DNA from: Akkermansiaceae bacterium UBA1315
Lineage (GTDB): Bacteria > Verrucomicrobiota > Verrucomicrobiia > Verrucomicrobiales > Akkermansiaceae
DNA: 64,000 nt
Direction: 5' to 3'
NCBI GenBank assembly: GCA_002307065.1
Contig: DBTN01000037.1
Span: forward strand, 18,230-82,229
In this document: positions 12,885-24,585 of the stretch, piece by piece
Numbering within the stretch: the first letter of the stretch is position 1
Layout: every line of letters begins with the position of its first letter
Made by a program: the position numbers and the translations under genes
Notes under the pieces: generated by a model
The model's database searches: none
Seen by the model: the letters and a program-made list of their open reading frames with translations, nothing else
What the model was told of the DNA's origin: nothing

Positions 12885-14025
12885 TCAATCGTCCTCATCC
12901 TTGGATCCTTTGACACGTACTTTGCCGCGCAGTTTCGCTTCGATGAACGCGTCGATATCGCCGTCCATCACATCTTGGATATTTCCGGATTCCTGACCGG
13001 TTCTCAGATCGAGAACTTTTTGGTAAGGCTGGAACACATACGAACGGATCTGATTTCCCCAAGAAACGTCGCCCTTTTCACCATAAGCACGGTCGGACTC
13101 AGCGCGCTGTTTGTCCTCCTCAATGGTGTAAAGTTTCGCTTTGAGAATCTGGTAAGCGAGCTCCCGGTTCGCGCCTTGCGTCCGGGCAGCCGTCGAACGA
13201 ATCAAAATACCGGTTGGAAGGTGGCGAAGGATGACGGCCGTTTCCACTTTGTTCACGTTCTGGCCGCCTTTGCCGCCGGAACGCGTGGTGGTGATCTCGA
13301 CGTCCTTGTCGTTGATCTCGATCTTGATTTCCTTGGAAACCTCCGGCGTCGCGTCGATCGAAGCGAACGACGTGTGACGTTTCGCCGCCGAATCGAACGG
13401 GGAAATCCGTACCAACCGGTGGACGCCGCGTTCGTTTTTCAAATAACCGTAAGCATAGTCGCCTGTGATTTTTAAAGTCGCCGAACGCAAACCGGCTTCA
13501 TCACCGTCCTGCCAATCCAGCGTTTCAACCGCATAGCCCTTTCGCTCCGCCCAGCGGACATACATCCGGTGCAGCATCTGCGCCCAATCGCACGCTTCCG
13601 TGCCACCCGCTCCTGCGGAAATGACGAGGAAACACGGCGAAATATCGCTCGGTTGATCGAGAAGAGTCAGCAATTCGTAAGCTTGGATGTCGTCGTCAAG
13701 GCTCTTCGCATTATCGAGCGCCTCACGGGCCAAATCGGCGTCGTCGAATTCTTTCGCCAACGAAACACCTTCTTCGATGTCGGATACGCGAGCCTCAAGC
13801 TTCAGGAACGAATCGAGTTTTTTCTTCAGACCGGCCGCTTTCGCGCTGATCGTTTTCGCCTTATCCGAATCATTCCAGAACTCGGGCGCACCCATCGCTT
13901 CTTCAAGCGTGTTGATTTCGTTTTCGAGGGTGGGGACGTCAAAGATACCTTCTGAGCTTCGACAAGCGGCTTTTCAAGCCAGCGGTGTCGAGCGCCAGAA
14001 GGTCGGCGGTAGGAAGTGAAGACAT
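12885..14025 (-). CDS. prfB: Peptide chain release factor 2 with programmed +1 frameshift
   Basis: A 28-codon ORF0 (MSSLPTAD...RRYL) ends at CTT TGA C. The +1 frame continues DVPTLENEI... into the RF2 body with SPF and GGQ motifs. Confidence 0.97.
13938..13953 (-). promoter_or_regulatory. prfB frameshift cassette (internal SD-like AGAAGG plus CTTTGAC)
   Basis: Minus strand reads AGAAGGTATCTTTGAC. Confidence 0.93.
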
Positions 14026-14131: not shown

Positions 14132-14989
14132 TCAGACTCGCTCGGATCGAAATCTGCGGCCGCCTACCCCCATCGCGAAAAGCCAAATTGCCAAACCGGT
14201 CGACGGCTCAGGGACGACGGCGATGATCGTGTCGCTGAGCCGAATCGAGTCGAAGAGAATATCGCCTGATGCGTTCTGATAAGTGATTTTGAAATCATCC
14301 AAAACCGTTCCCGTGTTCACTAAGTTCGCAGGATTATTTCCTAATTGCGACCAAACATCTTCCGCTTTGACCCAAAGGTCCCAGTGACCATCGGTCAAGG
14401 TGCCGATCGTGCCATCCGGTTTCATATAAGTCAGATCGCTTCCGGAGTTATTGATTCCCCACCAGACATCCATCCACTGACCGGTTTGCAAAGCAGATCC
14501 AAGATTCGTACCCGTATTGTGATCTCGGAATTGATAGGTATCGATCGCTCCATCCGCGAAATTGATGCCAAAATCACTGTGCGTCAGCGCATTTCCCGGA
14601 TGACTGTTTCCCGTAGTAAATCCCGAGCCTGCCGCAAACATCAGCCCAGAACCATAAGTCGACGTAATATCAGCAATCTGCATCCGAATCTCCACCTGCA
14701 ACACGGCCGCATTCCAATCATCGCCGTTGATGGTGATCGCCCCCGCGTTTCCGGTTCGCAGCGCGCGCAACGAATCATCCGCGATCGACCATACCAAACC
14801 CGCTCCCGACGTGGAAATTCCGTCCGCCTGATTCGCACCGGTTCCCACATAACTCGCCAAGTCCGTCGATCCGGAAAAGTTTTGCTCCCAAAGAATCGCC
14901 GCCTTCGCCGAAACCGCAGAAAACGCAAATATCACGGTCACGAAAATGCTCGGCAAAAATCCAGCACGCTCAAAAATAGGTTCTTTCAT
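14132..14989 (-). CDS. PEP-CTERM sorting-domain surface protein
   Basis: N-terminal signal peptide (…AVSAKA), and C-terminal VPEPST, a TM helix and a basic RRFR tail. Confidence 0.92.
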   Translation of the reverse strand: MKEPIFERAGFLPSIFVTVIFAFSAVSAKAAILWEQNFSGSTDLASYVGTGANQADGISTSGAGLVWSIADDSLRALRTGNAGAITINGDDWNAAVLQVEIRMQIADITSTYGSGLMFAAGSGFTTGNSHPGNALTHSDFGINFADGAIDTYQFRDHNTGTNLGSALQTGQWMDVWWGINNSGSDLTYMKPDGTIGTLTDGHWDLWVKAEDVWSQLGNNPANLVNTGTVLDDFKITYQNASGDILFDSIRLSDTIIAVVPEPSTGLAIWLFAMGVGGRRFRSERV

Positions 14990-15103
14990 CACGGGGGGAA
15001 GTTGCCAGATGCCATCCATTAGCACCTGACGATCAACCCCCTAGCAACAAACGTACCTGAATGTCAAAAAACAATCTTCGAAAAAACGATCCGTTTGAAG
15101 AAA

Positions 15104-15538
15104 TCACCTCGGCTGCTTTCTGAGCAAGGCTTGCTCCAGATTTTTCACCAAGGAATCCATTCCCGCCTCGAAGGCCCGGCGTGCGAAGGCGGCGTCGTTT
15201 GCATAGGTTTTCATCGGCCTCGCTTGGGCTCTGTCCAATTTCACCACCTGCTTCAGCAATGACTTTCCGTCCGAGCCGATGATTTCGACTTCCATCAGTA
15301 TCGACGGACTCATCAAAAAAATTTCCCCGCTATCCGATTTCGAAGAACGCGCATAACCGTAACGGATCACCGTCGGGCGGACCTTCGCCGCGCCGTCTTT
15401 CCGCAACCGGTTTTTAAAGAAAGCATCCTTCCGCAAACCGGCTTCCAATTTCTCCGTCAGCCGCTTGTCCAAACCGGTTGGTATATTTCTCTTCGCTGCC
15501 TCCGCATCATGCCCATTGGCATGTTCAAACTTCGATTG
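15104..15538 (-). pseudogene. Probable 5'-truncated gene fragment downstream of the Rhs immunity gene
   Basis: Open frame from a TAG at 15539-15541 to 15104 with no ATG near its 5' end (first usable start is TTG at 15472). Host-like composition. Confidence 0.35.
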
Positions 15539-15644: not shown

Positions 15645-16112
15645 TCAAAATTTTTCACCTTCAATCGGAAACCATTCGCCTTGATTTTTCATCTTTTTTA
15701 CCGGCGTTGATAGCTTTGCGTAATCTCCAGTCGCGAGGGCTAAGTAAAGCTTCCTATCTAACCCAACCCATATGCAGTAGAACATTCCACTTTCCTGCAT
15801 TTCTTTAGAGAGCCTCAAGGCCTCTTCATTTTTTCCCTCCAGCGATACACCATAAAACGCTGGCATCCTATAGTTTATCAAAAGACCATCATAATCAATG
15901 GTTACTTTTTTTGTAACAACCATATAGTCACCCATAAAGTAATTAAATTGCCCCGGACCCACCTTAATCACTTTTTTATTATCGGAATTTATGATCAGCC
16001 ACTTTTTGGATGGGTTATAAAAATATAATTTCGGCGGAGCAACACACCCAAAAATAAAAAAAGAAAAAATTATTAATATGATTACTTTTATTAAAATTTT
16101 TTTACTGACCAT
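15645..16112 (-). CDS. Lipoprotein, putative cognate immunity protein of the Rhs toxin
   Basis: Signal peptide with lipobox (FIFG-C23), strongly AT-rich, and overlaps the toxin stop by 11 nt. Confidence 0.75.
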   Translation of the reverse strand: MVSKKILIKVIILIIFSFFIFGCVAPPKLYFYNPSKKWLIINSDNKKVIKVGPGQFNYFMGDYMVVTKKVTIDYDGLLINYRMPAFYGVSLEGKNEEALRLSKEMQESGMFYCIWVGLDRKLYLALATGDYAKLSTPVKKMKNQGEWFPIEGEKF

Positions 16113-19100
16113 ATATCAAGTTACTTCCTTGTTTAACGTTCCAAACTTTATTTTCACCATATGTTTGAGGACCCCTCTCGAATAAGCTATAGGGGCCATG
16201 AGCAAGGTATTTCGGATTCATCAAGTAATCAAAAGCATATGTAATCAAAACCCCTGGCAAATACAACAGACCCGTTTGCTGGCCTTGATATGTGTGCATC
16301 ACTTCGTGCTGACCTACAGTATGCCCCTCGGCTGCCATCATCACTTCCGGACCAAATTTAGAAGCATACGATATAACATTCCCAAAAGTAATCGCGGTCA
16401 TCATTAAATTATGACCCGTAACCTGGATAGCATTATTATCAAACGATATGCCGAAGTCCCACTTTTTCGAAAAAGGATACGCGAGGGCTTCCGCCACGAA
16501 CCCCGAGGCACCAAAAGCCAAACCAATCAAAGTATTGGGAAAATTCCATATCTTACCTATCAAATCAGAACCATATTCAGATATACTCTTTAAATCGTTG
16601 GACTTCCCGGTTAATTTTTTCACATTTGCCAGCGTGCCCAGCCCTGAAGAAACCATATACTGGAATGCAGATGTGTAAGCTCCATTTGCAAATTTGCCTC
16701 CACCCAACGTGCTGACAGTCCCTCCGACAGCTGCGGATTTGATTGTTCCTGAAACCATGTTTCCATTTCCATAAGGCAATAATTGCCCGGCGGCGGACGC
16801 AGCCGCAGTGATGAACCCGTCGCTGAATTTTCCTCCCATCGCTTCGTTGACGGTTCCACCCACGATACCATGACCAGCAATGTGGGCAAGCGTTGAGGCG
16901 TAATTTCCAGCTTGGAATGAGCTTGCCACTCCGTTCCCCATTCCACCGGTAATCGCGCCCTGTACGGCACCAATTGCCGCGCCTCGAAGAATGTCACCGA
17001 TATCACCACCATTCAGTGCAGCACTCAGCCCTCCACCGACTGCTCCTGCGATGGCCCCTGTTGCCGCCATTCCCGTGGCGCTCAAGGTGGTGGCACCGGC
17101 TGCCGTGGTTGTGGTAAATGCACCACCAGCCGCCATGAATGCTGCCCCCACTCCCCACGTGACGACTGCCACCACCACGATCACCACAATCGTCCTCCAG
17201 TTTTTCTTCACCCAGTTTTTGAGTTTGTGGAAGGCTTTGCTGAGCCAGGAGAAACCGCTGGGGTCGGTGAGGTTCAGCGGGTTGTTCATCACATAGCTGA
17301 ACCGGTTGAAGTTTTGGGAGTATTCGGGGACTTGGACGAAGGGATCCGGGCTGAGCATGCGGCCGAGCTCGGGATCGTAGATGCGACCGTTCATGTGGAT
17401 GAGGCCGCTGTCGTCGAGTTGTTCGTGACCGGTGTAGCCGCGGTGATAATCTTCGCCGGAGGTGAGGAAAGGTTGATTTCCTTCCGTGCGACCGGCGGTC
17501 CATTGGGTGGCATCGCGGCGTTCGCCCCAGGCGTCGAAGGACTGGCGTTCGAGGGTGGGTGGGGAGAAGGATTGGCCGTTCCAGGAACCGGTGAGGAGGA
17601 GGTCGGTGGAGCCGAGGTGGTCTTTTAGAACGGTGGTCAGTTTGACGGCGGTTCCGCTTTCCGTTTCAGTCCGGGTGTAAACGCCGATCCCGCCCAAGGT
17701 GTGGCGATGGATGGTCTTTGAGGGGACGTTCTCGAGCGTCGAATCGTGGACTTCTCGTTCGTAGGCACCCAGGTAGAGGGTGGTCTCAACCACTGTCCCT
17801 TCCAAGGTCGTTCGGGTTTTCTGTTGCCGGGCGCGGTTGCCTCCGGCATCGAATTCGAAAGAGGTGAAGACCCGACCGACCGGGCGGAGCGACGCAAGGC
17901 TCAGATCGCTGAGCGCGGGCGCTTCATCGTAAGCAACACTGGCGAGCTGGCCAAAAGACGTCCAAGTGTAGTTTCGTTTGGTATCACTGATGACGTATCC
18001 GGCGGCATCGTAAACATAATCGCGCTGTTGGCCTTTGACAGTGGCGCGGGTGACAGCGTGGGGGCGACTGCCGTTATAGTTTAACGTGGCGCTGCCTTTG
18101 GTGAGGAGATTTCCGTTTGGCGCATAAGTATAATTTTCCGGCGGAGGAACAGTCGTGGTGGGAGCGCCGCTGTGGGAGGAAACCGCAGATTGGGTCAACC
18201 GGTTGAGCGAATCGTAAGTGAAGATTTCGGAGCGTCCGACAATGAAGTCGCTGCGGCTTGAAAGGTTACCGAGCGTATCCCAGCCGTAAGTTTTTTGTTG
18301 GAGGACCGTACCATTTCGCGAAGCGGAAAGACCGGTGAGCAGACCGCTGGTCGGATGATAGGAAGCTGCTGTTGTCACTCCCTGAGCAAGGGTTTGGCTG
18401 AGCGCACGACCGGACGAATCGAATCGACCCGCCTGCCAAAGCACGGTGCCCACGCCGGGGAAATTACTGCCCGGCGGACCTCCGGCAAGCGTCAGGGAAA
18501 CCGGAAAGGAATAGAGCGGATCATATTCGTGCACGACCGTGAGACCTCCGGCATCGGTCTCGGTAAGCGGTCTGCCGAGGGCGTCGTAGGTGCTGGAAGT
18601 GGTGAAGGTTTCGCCGAATTGGGTTTTCCGGGTGGACAGTGGGCGACCCAAGGAGTCATAAGAAATCTCCTCAAGGTATCCGCCGGGACCGGTGGTTTTC
18701 CAAGGTTTGCCGAGACCATTTCCTTGGGCGTGATCGTAATAGGTATGATAGGTACCTTCCGGTTTTTGGACGGTGACCGGGCGACCTAAGATATCATAAG
18801 TGAAATACGTGGTCTGATTTTTCGCATTGGTCGAGGACAGAACTTGGCCGAGCCCATCATAAGTCGAAGAGGAGCTTCCCGAGTTGGCTTCCCATACACC
18901 GGTCTTGTTACCGAACAGGTCGAAAGTATTGGTTAATAAGGTGGCACCGTCGATGGAGACGCTCATCAGTCTGCCCTCTTGATCGTGATGAAACCGGGTG
19001 GTTTGATTCGAGGGATCCCGCGATTGAATAAGCCTGCCGTGTTCGTCTTCCCAGCGTTCGAGGGATTTTCCGTTCCGATTGAGAACCTTTGAATAAGTGA

Positions 19101-22100
19101 CCGGTTGCCCATCTAGAATCTGAGCACCGTAGGCTTGGATGCGCTCAAAACCTCCATCGGGATGCTGCGTGACCAAGGCTCGATCCAGGAGGTCGTAGGT
19201 CACGTAGGTAAACGCCGGAGTTTCTCCCGCCGCAAACGCATTTGAAGCAGCCACCTTTCGACCGAGATAATCGTAAACATTGACCGAGTACACTTTCGAA
19301 TAGCGCGCCGTACCGGCCGCCGTCGCGTCACGCAGGATCGTCGTTTCTGAGACCAAATCCCGACCATTGGCATCCAGATATACTTTTGCGACCGGTGCTC
19401 CCGAGCTTTCCTTTGCCCGGAAATAATGAATGTTGTTTTGCAACCAAGCGGCCACGGATGAAGGCAGCTCAGCATTCGTGGCATAACCGGTGATCTCGCC
19501 GGTTTGGGTCCCATCCGGGTGATCGGTGCGGATCAGCGTGCCGAAAGCATCATAAGAAAAACGGGTGGTTTTTCCGGTCAGATCGATCGTGGAGAGCAGC
19601 AGCGATTTCTGCGTATCGTATTGATAGGTCGTTTCATGATTGAGCTGGTTTTTCTCACCAATGACAAACCGCCCCTGCGAATCATACTGGGTCGTGCTGA
19701 ACCGGGTTTCACCGCTGGCGGATACCGTCGCCTGAACTACATTCCCGAAGCTATCGTGGGTGTAGGTCTTTGTGGAAGAGAGCGGGTGTCCAGGCTCGAC
19801 GGTTTCACTCGTCAGCAAACCGGTCGATGTGGAATAGGTGAAAGCTGAGGTTTTTGAAATGGAGGGTTTCCCTGCGCCCGATTTAGTCACCGTGGATTGA
19901 GAAAGCCGACCGAGGTGCCATCGATTCTCGTCGACGGTGTGATGGTAAACATGGGTCGAAACGACTTTGGATCCATCCAGACTTTCGACCGTGGATTTTT
20001 TCACAAATCCATAACTGTCGAAATCTTCGAGATTTTGGGTGGTTTTGGTTTCGATTTTCAGTGTGCCATCCAGATCAAAGGTATGCTTCACAGAGGATGT
20101 CTGGACCGGTCTTCGAATCGTGCCACCGATACCGGTTTGAGACGGCATTTCTGCGTAGCCCGAAGTTTCCAACGCCACCAGCTTCATCCCTGCGGAAACT
20201 CCTGGAAAAATCGGACTCACATCGGAGGGATCCACCCGGACTTTTGTCTGCACCGAAACCGGACTGCCCGCGAACGGATACTCGCGCGACATTTCCGTGC
20301 GACTCCATTGGCCGTTGAGTTCGTCGATTGCCTCCACCCAGCCGAAGCCAAGAGACGTTTCGTTTTTCCGATCGTAACGCAAATCCCCGTACCGCTGTGA
20401 TTTGTATCGTCGGCCACCCATGCCGTCTGGTTCGGAATAACGGGAAACAACCAGACGGGAGTCGATCACTGAGACATGTCCCTCTGGCAAAAATTCCGGA
20501 CCTTTCTCATAAACGCGAGAATGAAATCCGACCGTCGGTGAGGGATCATTCAACCTTCGGTATTCCACAACAATATCCTTACCGAACCCATCCGTCACCG
20601 CCTTTACTTTTTCCTGACGACACTGGTTGATATAGACTTGGGGGATTCCATTGGCATGCAAGCCCGCCAGCAGATCAGGAAAACCGTCACCATTGACATT
20701 CACAAACTGAGCGGCGGGAGAGGAAGAGTTTCCGGTTCGGAGTCGGAATCCATCCGGCAGCCCCCAAGAAGCATCCTCCCGCCACCCTGAGCCCGTATTG
20801 ACGAAGGCTCCATTATTCGTGGCGTTAAAAGGCAGAGTCGTCGATGGACCTTCTTGCGTGACATAATCGCGGGAAATCAAAATATCCGTCAATCCATCCC
20901 CATTGAGATCAAGAATTTCTCCTCCGGAGACCCCGTCTCGGTGGGAAATCAGTGAAACCGGCACCACATGACGAGAATCTTGAATCCAAGCAGATCCCGC
21001 CGCTGAGTTACCCGCGCCTTTGTTATACCAAGTAGCGTAAGAGTGGGTATAACTCATGACCGTATAACCACCTCGACCGACAACTTTTTTAGTTCCAACC
21101 GTATCAGCTCGAAGGAGATCAAGAAGACCATCACCATTCAAGTCGACAAGCCGAGTTCCGGCGTCATTTCCTAATGAATCGGAAATGACTGGGTGACCGT
21201 TTGGACTCGAAGTCGCTCCCAAGAAGGGAAAAGTCCAAGCCGTCTGTGGCGAAGAATTGATCGAATAATCGTAGACTGGGCTCTTCCAGCTAGGTATTTG
21301 AGAAGGTCCAGACGCCGCGCTCATGAGCCATGATGCCCTGTCTTGTGAATAACGCGTTTGCTCAATTCGACCTTTCAAGTATACCGATTCTAATCCTCTG
21401 GCGAATGTGTAGTCTGGAAACCCGTCGCCATTTAGGTCCGCTGCGGCAAATCCGATTCGTGGTTTCGGATAACCATCGGCATATTCTTTGAGGAACTCTG
21501 GAAAAGCCAATGCATCCGACTGGATCCAGCCTAGACCAAGGTGAACCTTGTTTAGGAAGACCGTTCTTGAGTTAGGCCCGGCAATTAGCGTGTTTTCATC
21601 ATTTGCAACCAAAGAGCCAAATGGCGAAGTCGACACCACCAAGTCAAGATAGTCATCTCCGTCCATGTCGATGAATTCCTGATCCAATGTGTGAGAAGCT
21701 CCCCCGTATCCGCCCGAAGAACTCACATTTTTACTTCGATAGGGGAAAGATTGATCATAGCTCGAAAGCGGCTCCCACCGAGCGTTTCTAAACGTGTAAA
21801 ACCGATAATTTTTACGCGATTCGTTATTTAAATAATTATAGATACTTGGAACAAACAGATCCAAGGTTCCGTCTCCATTGATATCGACCGGTTTTGCCAA
21901 CAAATCGTGACGAGCTGACCAATATGCAGGATTGTCTCCCCCGCTGCCATTTGCCAGAGGAGCGTCAGTCGGAGGAACGAGAAAATCAGCCGGAGTGAAT
22001 TTCTCTCCTGTGTTTAGAAAAGCGGTTCCCAGAGTATTTGGGACGATCGTTTTCGTCTGCGGATCTGTTTTTGACGGCTCTTCTTGATAACTCAGCACTC

Positions 22101-24585
22101 TCCAGTCCATGATATCGATCAATCCGTCCGAATTGATATCCACAAACCGCACTCCCCGATCCTGCGACGAACCGTCGAGCAAACGAGGCAATTCATAATC
22201 GCTCGCGAAGGCAATCGGCATCACATTTTCCGCAGTCTCCGAAGACGAACGAAAAACACGAATATTTCGAAATTCCGCCCATCCCATTCCGTTGGCCGCA
22301 TTGTCGTCCGAGTTGATTAATGCCAGATAATTCGCGATCCCCGTTTTGTGTTCACCCAAGTTGAAAGTATACGTTTTCCATTCCGACGGATCATAGGAAA
22401 ACGCTTCGCCGATCCATTCAGGACTTTCTCCTGTTCCGCCAATCCGGACCGCACAATCGGGTCCGTAAGTCGTCACCTTTTTCACCCCTCTGCCGGCTCG
22501 CACATACATCGAGCCCTTGTTGCTTTCATTCAAATCATCATCCAAAGCCAACACCGCACCGAACTCCAAATGATCTCCCCTAAACTCGAACTGTACCTTC
22601 GTATCCGAATGAATGGCAATGGGCGCCCCCGGGAGAGGAACGGCTCGGGAAGCATCACCTGAAAGAAGAATGCCCCGTCCTTCGTCATTGGGCATCACAT
22701 AAGCATTTCCCGTTCCGGCATTGGCCTCCAAATTGTTCCCATATAAGGGATAAGAGCCTCCGGAGCGCTTCACCCATTTCGGTTCGCCAGCGGGCAGGGT
22801 ATCCCATTCGATTTTGGTTGGGGGAACCGCCAAGTCGTTTGCGACAAATTTCTGAACTTGGGTTAATAGAGATCGGTTGGTTTGATCGCTCGTGGCGTAA
22901 GAAAGCGCATACCGGTGATTCAGATAGGATCCGGTATTGACACGGATTTCTTTGAGCCTTTTCGAAGCCCATATCCTTTTCCCTTGATGATATGAAAAAT
23001 GAATATCGGGTCTTTCTTCATAAATGCAGCGGACGGCGCAACTCGGGCTCAAACCCGTCGAAGTATTTCCCGTGTATAAAATTTCATCCACCCGATGATT
23101 TGCCACCTCGTCTGGATTCTGCGTACCATCTGAGATATAATTCACCTGATAAAAGTTACCGACGGTATCTGATACTCTTTTGATCGCCCAAGAGATCGGC
23201 GCGATCCCGGATGACGGCATCGACCTTGAATCTGCCGTAGTGCCGAACTCAAGGATCAAGCCCGCCTTTGTTTCGACCTTCCACGATGAGACTCCTGCAT
23301 TGGCATTTCCGCTGAGGCGCACTCGAGAAAAGGAATCCAGCTCTGTCCGATATTCAGATCCGTCTTCGCCATAGTTTCCCGAAACACAAACCAATCTCTC
23401 GCCATTGAGAAAGAACCGGTCATCCGGCTGAAAATCCACTGGATTTGAAAAACCGTCTTTTCCGTAAGTCGCGGTCCCCCGTGTGATGCTTTGAAGGCCA
23501 GATAGTTCAAATCCCAATCCCGCGATTCCATTTCCCCCGCCGCTTGAATAGCTCAGTGAAATCTTCGGTTCCATGCCGCCGGTTCCTTTGGGCAAATCGA
23601 TCGGGATTGAATAATTCGCCGACCCGTCGCCACCTACGGAGAAGGAACCTTTGAGTGACCCGACCGGTTGGTGGCTTCCCATGATGGTCAGTGGCGGGAT
23701 CGTGCCGATGCTTCCGACACCGGTCAGGCCATTGGCGACAGAACTGCCGGATGCCCAGAGCGAATCGAGGTAATGATCCAAGTAGGATTTTCCCGTGCCC
23801 GGTTTGAGCGCGTCGCGATCGTAAAGATTGGGATTTGAGCCATTCGCAATTTCCCAAGCATCGGGAAGCCCGTCTTTATCCGCATCCGGGAAAAGCATAT
23901 TTGCCGGATCGGCAGATAAATCATCCACCAATGTATCTCCACGGCGACTGCCGAAAAATTCCAACGACGTCAGGTTTTCCCCGCGTCCTTCGAATGACAG
24001 ATTGACCGCTGCCAATTTCCCGTCGATGAACAAGTCCCATAGATTCCGATCATAATCGTGTCGCAACGTCACGCGCATCCAAGTCTCCGAAACCGGTGCG
24101 TCACTCGAAACCTGAAAGGTCCCCGGTGTGATGAACCACTGCGACGAACCGGTCTGACCGTCTGCACCATTAAATGCCCATAGCTGGCCGGTTTGCGAAC
24201 CGGTTGGGACCTGAAATGCGATCTGGCTGCCATTCGCTACAAAGCTCGCCAAACTTCCTTCTGATTCCGCCGTTGGCTTAATTTGGAAATCGATGAACGC
24301 CGTCCGCTCTTCCGCATCCCAGGAAACTTCGCGCCGCAACCACGCTTCTTCCGATCCCTGATCGAGCCGCAACGCTTGCCCGCCGCCGACGCCCTGCCCC
24401 GTCGGCGTCACCGTTGCCGAACCCGAAACCCTGGCCCATTCCGCCGGATTCGATTCGTAGATCAGTTCCAACGGAACAAATTCCGGGGCCTCAAAATCAA
24501 TCGGCGGCAACTCGGCCAGCAATTGATTGGCGATGAGAGAAAAATTCGTGAAGAGACCGATAGCGAGTTTCAGCCGGGGGGACAT
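16102..24585 (-). CDS. Large secreted SpvB/FG-GAP/YD-RHS repeat polymorphic toxin (TcB-TcC-like single chain), 2827 aa
   Basis: Signal peptide; SpvB-like GSANYSIPIDLPKG...PKISLSYSS; multiple DxNGDG repeats; YD repeats; RHS core RGYTGHE...HMNGRIYDP...SPDP...NNPLNLTDPSG; C-terminal HEVMH. Confidence 0.93.
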   Translation of the reverse strand: MSPRLKLAIGLFTNFSLIANQLLAELPPIDFEAPEFVPLELIYESNPAEWARVSGSATVTPTGQGVGGGQALRLDQGSEEAWLRREVSWDAEERTAFIDFQIKPTAESEGSLASFVANGSQIAFQVPTGSQTGQLWAFNGADGQTGSSQWFITPGTFQVSSDAPVSETWMRVTLRHDYDRNLWDLFIDGKLAAVNLSFEGRGENLTSLEFFGSRRGDTLVDDLSADPANMLFPDADKDGLPDAWEIANGSNPNLYDRDALKPGTGKSYLDHYLDSLWASGSSVANGLTGVGSIGTIPPLTIMGSHQPVGSLKGSFSVGGDGSANYSIPIDLPKGTGGMEPKISLSYSSGGGNGIAGLGFELSGLQSITRGTATYGKDGFSNPVDFQPDDRFFLNGERLVCVSGNYGEDGSEYRTELDSFSRVRLSGNANAGVSSWKVETKAGLILEFGTTADSRSMPSSGIAPISWAIKRVSDTVGNFYQVNYISDGTQNPDEVANHRVDEILYTGNTSTGLSPSCAVRCIYEERPDIHFSYHQGKRIWASKRLKEIRVNTGSYLNHRYALSYATSDQTNRSLLTQVQKFVANDLAVPPTKIEWDTLPAGEPKWVKRSGGSYPLYGNNLEANAGTGNAYVMPNDEGRGILLSGDASRAVPLPGAPIAIHSDTKVQFEFRGDHLEFGAVLALDDDLNESNKGSMYVRAGRGVKKVTTYGPDCAVRIGGTGESPEWIGEAFSYDPSEWKTYTFNLGEHKTGIANYLALINSDDNAANGMGWAEFRNIRVFRSSSETAENVMPIAFASDYELPRLLDGSSQDRGVRFVDINSDGLIDIMDWRVLSYQEEPSKTDPQTKTIVPNTLGTAFLNTGEKFTPADFLVPPTDAPLANGSGGDNPAYWSARHDLLAKPVDINGDGTLDLFVPSIYNYLNNESRKNYRFYTFRNARWEPLSSYDQSFPYRSKNVSSSGGYGGASHTLDQEFIDMDGDDYLDLVVSTSPFGSLVANDENTLIAGPNSRTVFLNKVHLGLGWIQSDALAFPEFLKEYADGYPKPRIGFAAADLNGDGFPDYTFARGLESVYLKGRIEQTRYSQDRASWLMSAASGPSQIPSWKSPVYDYSINSSPQTAWTFPFLGATSSPNGHPVISDSLGNDAGTRLVDLNGDGLLDLLRADTVGTKKVVGRGGYTVMSYTHSYATWYNKGAGNSAAGSAWIQDSRHVVPVSLISHRDGVSGGEILDLNGDGLTDILISRDYVTQEGPSTTLPFNATNNGAFVNTGSGWREDASWGLPDGFRLRTGNSSSPAAQFVNVNGDGFPDLLAGLHANGIPQVYINQCRQEKVKAVTDGFGKDIVVEYRRLNDPSPTVGFHSRVYEKGPEFLPEGHVSVIDSRLVVSRYSEPDGMGGRRYKSQRYGDLRYDRKNETSLGFGWVEAIDELNGQWSRTEMSREYPFAGSPVSVQTKVRVDPSDVSPIFPGVSAGMKLVALETSGYAEMPSQTGIGGTIRRPVQTSSVKHTFDLDGTLKIETKTTQNLEDFDSYGFVKKSTVESLDGSKVVSTHVYHHTVDENRWHLGRLSQSTVTKSGAGKPSISKTSAFTYSTSTGLLTSETVEPGHPLSSTKTYTHDSFGNVVQATVSASGETRFSTTQYDSQGRFVIGEKNQLNHETTYQYDTQKSLLLSTIDLTGKTTRFSYDAFGTLIRTDHPDGTQTGEITGYATNAELPSSVAAWLQNNIHYFRAKESSGAPVAKVYLDANGRDLVSETTILRDATAAGTARYSKVYSVNVYDYLGRKVAASNAFAAGETPAFTYVTYDLLDRALVTQHPDGGFERIQAYGAQILDGQPVTYSKVLNRNGKSLERWEDEHGRLIQSRDPSNQTTRFHHDQEGRLMSVSIDGATLLTNTFDLFGNKTGVWEANSGSSSSTYDGLGQVLSSTNAKNQTTYFTYDILGRPVTVQKPEGTYHTYYDHAQGNGLGKPWKTTGPGGYLEEISYDSLGRPLSTRKTQFGETFTTSSTYDALGRPLTETDAGGLTVVHEYDPLYSFPVSLTLAGGPPGSNFPGVGTVLWQAGRFDSSGRALSQTLAQGVTTAASYHPTSGLLTGLSASRNGTVLQQKTYGWDTLGNLSSRSDFIVGRSEIFTYDSLNRLTQSAVSSHSGAPTTTVPPPENYTYAPNGNLLTKGSATLNYNGSRPHAVTRATVKGQQRDYVYDAAGYVISDTKRNYTWTSFGQLASVAYDEAPALSDLSLASLRPVGRVFTSFEFDAGGNRARQQKTRTTLEGTVVETTLYLGAYEREVHDSTLENVPSKTIHRHTLGGIGVYTRTETESGTAVKLTTVLKDHLGSTDLLLTGSWNGQSFSPPTLERQSFDAWGERRDATQWTAGRTEGNQPFLTSGEDYHRGYTGHEQLDDSGLIHMNGRIYDPELGRMLSPDPFVQVPEYSQNFNRFSYVMNNPLNLTDPSGFSWLSKAFHKLKNWVKKNWRTIVVIVVVAVVTWGVGAAFMAAGGAFTTTTAAGATTLSATGMAATGAIAGAVGGGLSAALNGGDIGDILRGAAIGAVQGAITGGMGNGVASSFQAGNYASTLAHIAGHGIVGGTVNEAMGGKFSDGFITAAASAAGQLLPYGNGNMVSGTIKSAAVGGTVSTLGGGKFANGAYTSAFQYMVSSGLGTLANVKKLTGKSNDLKSISEYGSDLIGKIWNFPNTLIGLAFGASGFVAEALAYPFSKKWDFGISFDNNAIQVTGHNLMMTAITFGNVISYASKFGPEVMMAAEGHTVGQHEVMHTYQGQQTGLLYLPGVLITYAFDYLMNPKYLAHGPYSLFERGPQTYGENKVWNVKQGSNLIYGQ

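Follow-up and report, generated by a model that had tools for sequence, protein, structure and literature searches.

In the window, a stretch of 64,000 nucleotides (nt) on contig DBTN01000037.1 of the Akkermansiaceae bacterium UBA1315, a single uninterrupted open reading frame (ORF) of 2827 codons, P0001, encodes a protein that we interpret, with a probability of about 0.72, as a polymorphic toxin against bacteria that belongs to the TcdB/TcaC class and has the form of a fused TcB-TcC-type cocoon. This class was defined by a signal peptide, an SpvB domain, an integrin-like propeller and RHS repeats (Zhang et al. 2012, PMC3482391), and P0001 is a clear further member of the class catalogued in 2012, carrying in addition a lineage-specific N-terminal module with a lectin-like domain and a TSP3 motif. 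The interpretation builds on the order of the domains, their conservation pattern, the boundary of the toxin cassette, the absence of type VI secretion system (T6SS) genes and a lipoprotein gene recurring beside the toxin domain. The sample of origin was a soil metagenome and the host is of the Luteolibacter type; P0001 is the only Rhs-type gene in this genome, which has a size of 3.09 Mb and a completeness of 92.7%.

Analysis of the translated sequence confirmed the following order: a signal peptide, a jelly roll similar to concanavalin A (ConA) and LamG domains, a TSP3-type motif, an SpvB/TcB N-domain, a probable insert resembling carbohydrate-binding modules (CBM), an FG-GAP propeller, an RHS shell, an Rhs core with DPSG and a cargo of 382/383 amino acids (aa) (Table 1). 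The Sec-signal, single-chain TcB/TcC-like Rhs toxin of the first-pass annotation was thus borne out by the domain matches and by a signal peptide called from its features, namely two basic residues among the first 10 aa and a core of hydrophobic residues. Position -1 of the signal peptide is A or G in 27 of 28 family members, and the mature N-terminus is conserved among 28 relatives as [EQYD]LPPI[ST]FE.

Pfam SpvB matched aa 319-493 (E 1.1e-13), and the same region returned PDB sequence matches to the SpvB N-domain (6p0x, E 5e-6) and to YenB (4igl, E 2e-5). A search of plasmid records with the SpvB segment identified relatives in Leptospira, Parabacteroides, Rhizobium and Shewanella, the top matches being orphan SpvB-RHS proteins. 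The propeller, matched by Pfam FG-GAP/FG-GAP_3 at aa 901-1243, showed six canonical DxNxDGxxD motifs at aa 816, 901, 1050, 1148, 1226 and 1296, together with a degenerate one. The shell was recognized by Pfam RHS_repeat (E 8.6e-28) and also by TIGR01643 YD_repeat_2x and is 60-64% identical to family members, while Rhs_assc_core (TIGR03696, NCBIfam) covered aa 2352-2444 with 59.3 bits against a 32.5-bit cut-off.

The DPSG sequence occupies aa 2441-2444 and is followed by 383 aa. As Rhs1 is cleaved after DPLGL and its toxin begins at the next residue (PMC8636562), by analogy the chain is probably cut after DPSGF2445, and the cargo peptide is expected from S2446 (SWLSK...) and not from F2445. The proposal that the cargo is released at the DPSG end is retained, and the expected peptide, first given as FSWLSK, is shifted by one residue, probably to SWLSK. 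The cargo following the predicted cleavage amounts to 382 aa, a TcC-like size that falls inside the range of 201-400 aa reported for the TcC hypervariable region (HVR) (PMC7861908).

A search with aa 1-320 returned 77 protein clusters, 72 of which are Rhs proteins, mostly of about 2800 aa and with identical domain order; the named source organisms are Verrucomicrobiota, Luteolibacter sp. and Luteolibacter ambystomatis, which encodes P0066. Since the match is patchy, occurring in 18 of 151 sampled genomes of the bacterial family and in 5 of 16 within the genus, the gene shows a spread of the accessory type. A conservation profile, calculated as mean pairwise identity in an alignment of 48 full-length members, singled out as variable zones the warhead on one side and the insert with the propeller on the other (0.20-0.35 over aa 601-1300). 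The body is 0.43-0.78 identical, against 0.06-0.07 for the last 167 aa; within it the insert is conserved least and the Rhs core most (Table 1). Other warheads on relatives are Tox-REase-7, Mbeg1/lipase, CHAP and VanY/M15, and the CHAP and VanY/M15 domains cut peptidoglycan, thus pointing to bacterial targets. PF26363 is named in the precomputed Pfam lists of P0007, P0021, P0025, P0039 and others.

Profiles for PAAR, VgrG and TssC matched an E. coli control and returned nothing in the whole genome, and TssC was likewise not detected in five other carrier genomes. The lack of PAAR, VgrG and TcA genes, first noticed in the window, therefore extends to the genome, with the provision that the TcA search had no positive control. 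P0001 is not a T6SS Rhs effector. It shares with this group (P. laumondii Rhs1, RhsA, Tse5) the RHS cage, the C-terminal autocleavage at DPxG and an immunity gene; however, it lacks PAAR, prePAAR, VgrG and an Eag partner, its genome has no T6SS, and an SpvB plus propeller half replaces the N-terminal plug and PAAR. The non-T6SS route suggested by the first-pass annotation agrees with the absence of T6SS genes, but it is not a new one, being already catalogued as the TcdB/TcaC trafficking class (PMC3482391).

The likeness to that class includes the signal peptide (called from features), SpvB, the propeller, RHS repeats, a swappable C-terminal toxin, a downstream immunity gene and the lack of a T6SS. 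In comparison with the class, P0001 adds a ConA/LamG-like domain and a TSP3 motif between signal peptide and SpvB, the insert of about 200 aa ahead of the propeller and a DUF637-like pre-toxin domain past the DPxG site; Verrucomicrobia are absent from the phyletic list of the class in the table of PMC3482391.

The length of 383 aa first annotated for the cargo after DPSG was correct, but the cargo consists of two modules rather than one. The pre-toxin domain (aa 2446-2660) contains a transmembrane (TM) helix at 2466-2485, corresponding to a hydropathy peak, followed by a Gly-zipper-rich stretch ending GGGKFANGAYTSAFQ, and it is kept at 49-67% in 58 of the 77 family members. When the library was searched exhaustively with the entire cargo, 3620 matches were obtained, mostly owed to this domain (alignment A3). 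DUF637 (PF04830) was detected at E<0.01 in 17 of 34 relatives (best 7.7e-6), and the language-model neighbours of the domain are DUF637 and DUF637+PT-VENN clusters, suggesting a distant member of DUF637. This family (PT637) was classed as a pre-toxin domain of CdiA-type toxins of the type V secretion system (T5SS) (PMC3482391). As in the corresponding region of CdiA (DUF637/PT637, PT-VENN), a conserved glycine-rich module lies directly upstream of a variable toxin with a fixed junction motif, which reads GGGKFANGAxTAAFQHLLNAE in the relatives. Unlike CdiA, P0001 gives a sub-threshold match, has a strong TM helix ahead of it and holds the module inside an Rhs cage, after the autocleavage site, and not in a filamentous T5SS protein.

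The boundary of the toxin cassette falls after the pre-toxin domain, where the GC content shifts (Table 1). The gene is a compositional mosaic, with insert, propeller and SpvB at about 50% GC and the N-domain, shell and pre-toxin domain at about 55%. The toxin domain itself (aa 2661-2827) found no match among the 77 family members but has 40 relatives elsewhere. The ORF downstream of it overlaps the toxin stop by 11 nt and encodes a protein with a lipobox (IFG/C). At three loci bearing the same toxin domain elsewhere (L006, L007, L008) the ORF after the toxin likewise encodes a small protein with a lipobox, and a hidden Markov model (HMM) built from these three lipoproteins ranked the ORF first of 26,643 six-frame ORFs of the genome, with E 0.0052 against 0.89 for the next; pairwise BLAST between the immunity candidates gave no significant similarity. 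The ORF is a candidate for the immunity lipoprotein of the toxin domain.

The toxin carries the sequence HEVMH at aa 2760-2764 (16294-16308) and a downstream invariant Glu, E2803. In alignment A2, comprising 27 sequences, the residues that never vary are a W, the strings PNT and GN, a Gln and, within HExxH, the Glu and the second His; a further Glu some 40 residues downstream is likewise invariant. The AlphaFold2 (AF2) model of the domain had a pLDDT of 91; Foldseek of this model against the PDB returned nothing at E<1, and the A2 profile gave no meaningful match to PDB sequences. An exhaustive VIA-align search placed on top the P. aeruginosa VgrG2b effector (6h56), with zinc peptidases among the next matches, and in the ESM Atlas an eCIS_core (DUF4157) cluster was found with TM-scores of 0.59/0.76 and M56/M48 peptidases at 0.4. 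Pfam eCIS_core matched 5 of the 27 relatives below threshold and is the sole recurrent family. On these grounds we consider the toxin, with moderate confidence, as a remote relative of the DUF4157/VgrG2b-like HExxH zincins. The C-terminal domain of VgrG2b is a DUF4157-type metallopeptidase that is toxic in the periplasm only, needs the Glu of its HExxH and is neutralised by a lipoprotein (PMC6899460). P0001 would share with VgrG2b and its immunity protein PA0261 a small HExxH domain, a probable periplasmic action and lipoprotein immunity; however, the similarity is remote, the carrier is an Rhs cage and not a VgrG spike, and the immunity proteins are not detectably related.

We propose that the protein would be exported by the Sec system and its signal peptide cut after A24. 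Judging from homologous proteins, the SpvB and RHS halves would close into a cage in which the plug of the Rhs core would cut the chain after DPSGF2445, leaving the 382-aa cargo unfolded inside. As to the exit from the producer, no dedicated partner gene is present and the genome contains three secretin genes. The ConA-like lectin and the calcium motif, together with the divergent insert and propeller, may bind glycans or receptors on the target-cell surface, and the hydrophobic pre-toxin domain, with its TM helix and glycine zippers and its likeness to the DUF637 of CdiA, may insert into the target envelope and carry the variable toxin along. The toxin, a putative small zincin-like enzyme (H/E-E-x-x-H ... 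E) related to DUF4157 and VgrG2b, would then act in the periplasm, the producer being guarded by the lipoprotein of the overlapping downstream gene, a step that is in part observed.

In Tse5, the Rhs shell acts as chaperone for an integral-membrane cargo, which it delivers to membranes (PMC10684867), and since that cage carries a membrane-inserting cargo, the putative translocator role of the pre-toxin domain is plausible. A bolder version, which we regard as doubtful, sees P0001 as a partner-free delivery machine in which the lectin and the fast-evolving insert and propeller choose the target, and the TM/Gly-zipper pre-toxin domain is an undescribed self-inserting translocator for any attached toxin. 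If this were true, the domain would be analogous in function to the translocation region of CdiA, but would lie unfolded within an Rhs cage and be freed by autoproteolysis. The questions posed by the system are how a cage of about 300 kDa exits a diderm cell and how the cargo enters a rival without TcA or T6SS. The Verrucomicrobiota family offers a clean single-gene case, with no conserved partner gene, two candidate binding modules and a candidate hydrophobic translocator, and a cultured carrier exists in Luteolibacter ambystomatis. With the putative toxin/immunity pair, the DUF4157-like zincin toxins of the periplasm, which are little understood, would also gain a new delivery scaffold.

Several points weigh against the interpretation of P0001 as an antibacterial cocoon toxin. 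The signal peptide is predicted from sequence features only. On P0001 the DUF637 profile reached 18.2 bits and E 0.0023, short of its cut-off of 26.6 bits, in a match that spans profile positions 34 to 168 out of 168. Sugar binding by aa 25-232 is predicted solely from fold resemblance, and the insert at aa 601-800, probably of CBM-like fold, owes this assignment to protein-language-model matches to CBM-type clusters (score 0.91-0.95), a resemblance that is no more than a lead. The TcA families PF18276 and PF03538 were not found in the 92.7%-complete genome, in a search that matched 0 of 14 control genomes and so had no positive control. As regards the toxin, the first His of HExxH is Glu in 5 of the 27 relatives, the VIA-align match to 6h56 is weak (Z 4.2, 13% identity), and eCIS_core scored 13.8 bits on the domain, below its 22-bit cut-off. 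The folded cocoon seems, in our reasoning, too large for a secretin channel as its way across the outer membrane. Finally, cocoon toxins of this SpvB-RHS type exported by Sec are common in many phyla, and we know of none that has been studied at the bench.

Among the other explanations, the one that survives best, although we hold it to be unlikely, is a surface-held weapon comparable to contact-dependent growth inhibition (CDI) proteins or WapA, kept on the producer by an uncleaved signal anchor or by a bound partner, and delivering its toxin on contact only instead of acting as a diffusible particle. The resemblance of the pre-toxin domain to the DUF637 of CdiA, the suitability of the lectin-like and propeller domains for adhesion and the lack of any evident release machinery are compatible with such a weapon, and toxins of the Sec/type II secretion system (T2SS) route may be surface-anchored (Zhang et al., PMC3482391). 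However, neither a partner of the CdiB/TpsB type nor an anchor motif was found for P0001, which has neither PEP-CTERM nor lipobox, and the conservation both of A/G at -1 and of the mature end speaks for cleavage. WapA of Gram-positive bacteria is similarly a Sec-signal Rhs/YD toxin for interbacterial competition without T6SS, but its producers have no outer membrane and, unlike P0001, it lacks the SpvB and propeller half.

A second possibility, to which we give very little chance, is that P0001 serves as the BC subunit in a genuine Tc (ABC) toxin directed at eukaryotes such as protists, nematodes or insects, with the TcA pentamer encoded in the unassembled part of the genome. Indeed, SpvB, propeller, RHS and core stand in TcB-TcC order, TcdB_toxin_midN was matched in some homologues, the cargo has a size within the TcC HVR range, the fold of the N-domain is similar to that of lectin-like subdomains in botulinum neurotoxins and the TcA searches had no positive control. 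The similarity to the TcB-TcC cocoons (YenB-YenC2, TcdB2-TccC3) comprises an SpvB-type N-domain, propeller, RHS shell, aspartyl-protease plug and an unfolded encapsulated cargo of similar size. P0001 differs from them in being a single chain with a signal peptide, while Tc toxins exit by lysis (PMC10847048). Moreover, there was no TcA match in the genome and no conserved neighbour of TcA size in eight loci, and among the least conserved parts here is the propeller, the part that has to fit a conserved TcA in TcB. The co-occurrence of an immunity-type lipoprotein gene with the toxin domain, and the peptidoglycan hydrolases (CHAP, VanY/M15) of sister proteins, which would be useless against eukaryotes, point instead to bacteria. 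As no TcA was found in the 92.7%-complete genome, P0001 is not to be filed as a Tc toxin. Finally, we rejected as extremely improbable the idea that the Gly-zipper region is itself the toxin, a pore former like Tse5-CT, with the HExxH domain as an accessory or processing module: the strong TM helix and glycine zippers and the precedent of Tse5-CT as a pore-forming Rhs cargo (PMC10684867) would suit it, but the region is conserved (49-67%) in members with differing last domains and downstream genes and so cannot explain strain-specific immunity, the compositional cassette boundary falls after it and the immunity-type lipoprotein co-varies with the last domain and not with the Gly-zipper region.

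The N-terminal module that distinguishes this putative antibacterial toxin within its class was modelled by AF2 (aa 1-320) on the 28-sequence alignment A1, giving a pLDDT of 80.8, a pTM of 0.79 and a beta-sandwich at aa 25-232. Foldseek against the PDB related the sandwich to the HCN domain of botulinum neurotoxin (BoNT), to NTNH and to the lectin domain of calreticulin (E 4e-7 to 1e-5); the model had 143 PDB matches at E<=0.001, and all the top matches listed are ConA-like domains. These results are consistent with a ConA-like lectin/LamG fold and, since the sandwich is matched to ConA-like lectin domains, the first description of the domain as jelly-roll-like was correct. The string DADKDGLPDAWE is the exact translation of 23851-23886, as first annotated, and belongs to a full 19-residue string at aa 234-252 (23830-23886). 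PF18884 TSP3_bac scored 18.8 bits on this motif, below its 25-bit cut-off, and the DxDxDGxxDxxE signature is present, with D234, D236, D238, G239 and E245 invariant in the 28 sequences. Alignment A1 has a mean identity of 53% with an invariant D-x-D-x-DG core, and the motif and its linker are among the best-conserved N-terminal parts (70-84% identity to relatives). The N-terminal module is therefore kept in homologues, with at least 72 Verrucomicrobiota protein clusters. In sum, the protein has a signal peptide by its features, the module is present in its homologues and no strict co-occurrence with T6SS or TcA loci was found, the three points on which the first-pass annotation had made its proposal depend.

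The non-Rhs proteins that match the N-terminus, the giant proteins P0073-P0078, carry PF13385 Laminin_G_3 and many regularly spaced TSP3 repeats, with motifs about 279 aa apart in P0074. The recurrence of the unit, many times over, in these proteins indicates that ConA/LamG plus TSP3 is a reusable cassette. Three Rhs relatives from the same bacterial family (G006, G017, G018) align from the TSP3 motif onward only, which suggests that the N-domain is exchangeable among Rhs relatives.

The motif had been regarded as a verrucomicrobial speciality that usually sits near the C-terminus and may have been moved N-terminally in P0001 so as to free the C-terminus. The motif is instead probably a generic TSP3-type calcium-binding repeat within a LamG-TSP3 cassette. 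A relaxed motif search of the genome returned 13 ORFs; five large ones bear the variant DxDxDGxxNxxEY at 104-124 aa from the C-terminus, with a domain of about 100 aa common to them behind it, and in three small ones the motif lies at relative position 0.54-0.72. The C-terminal placement has therefore some basis, but in proteins with a following domain that P0001 does not have. As this domain is absent and the motif type is generic, a relocated C-terminal sorting module finds no support and was rejected. The five large ORFs encode secreted proteins, located on C17(-) (677 aa), C21(+) (566 aa), C27(-) (1703 aa), C30(+) (1790 aa) and C37(+) (526 aa), whose tails show DxDxDGxxNxxEY(A)F and then the shared domain ending W...F.R..(I/V)T.P; this domain may be a recurrent sorting or anchoring module of the lineage.

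Table 1. Features of the P0001 locus, with positions in the window, mean pairwise identity among the 48 full-length members and GC content
Feature	Position	Strand	Basis	Identity	GC
Whole Rhs/TcB-TcC-like polymorphic toxin gene, P0001	16102..24585	-	Single open frame		
Signal peptide, aa 1-24 (MSPRLK...NQLLA / ELPP)	24514..24585	-	Feature-based call		
ConA/LamG-like beta-sandwich (lectin-like), aa 25-232	23890..24513	-	AF2 model, Foldseek	0.45-0.67 (N-domain)	
TSP3-type Ca-binding motif and conserved linker, aa 233-318	23632..23889	-	PF18884 sub-threshold, invariant residues		
SpvB/TcB N-terminal domain, aa 319-600	22786..23631	-	Pfam, PDB sequence matches	0.60-0.73	
Insert of about 200 aa, probably CBM/galactose-binding-like beta-sandwich, aa 601-800	22186..22785	-	Protein-language-model features	0.21-0.33	
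FG-GAP (integrin-like) beta-propeller, aa 801-1330	20596..22185	-	Pfam, blade motifs	0.20-0.35	
RHS/YD-repeat shell, aa 1331-2351	17533..20595	-	Pfam RHS_repeat, TIGR01643	0.39-0.58	55.2%
Rhs-associated core (aspartyl-protease plug) ending DPSGF, aa 2352-2445	17251..17532	-	TIGR03696	0.64-0.78	
Conserved pre-toxin domain, aa 2446-2660	16606..17250	-	Hydropathy, conservation, DUF637 sub-threshold	0.21-0.44 (aa 2451-2650)	55.3%
Variable toxin domain, aa 2661-2827	16102..16605	-	Alignment A2, AF2, structure searches	0.06-0.07 (last 167 aa)	41.3%
Candidate immunity gene, 155-aa lipoprotein	15645..16112	-	Lipobox, HMM ranking		35.3%

The flanks of the Rhs gene differ in all eight loci, and what recurs is limited to small ORFs on the downstream side and to transposases in several of the loci; a cross-BLAST of the ORFs from the eight loci returned only spurious in-gene frames and no shared neighbour gene. 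In the Luteolibacter ambystomatis locus (L004, 19485-20653) five small ORFs, two of them DUF4279, stand in a row downstream of the homologous Rhs gene and are followed by IS66 transposase genes, an arrangement that looks like a poly-immunity or orphan-cassette array. In the window, Pfam gave no family match for the immunity ORF, for a 122-aa ORF at 15104-15472 (-) or for the upstream 256-aa ORF. The 122-aa ORF, placed between the immunity and PEP-CTERM genes, may not be a gene at all, or else an orphan immunity gene. Downstream of the toxin locus the GC content is low, and a 297-aa ORF there, at 14132-15025 (-), encodes a protein that combines a signal peptide with a beta-rich domain and has a PEP-CTERM-like tail, VPEPSTGLAIWLFAMGVGGRRFRS. 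Further on, prfB (release factor 2, 12885-13960, -) carries at about 13944 the sequence CTT TGA C, the classic site of programmed +1 frameshifting, and its ORF is listed from 13895 without the first 25 codons or so, since these lie in another frame.

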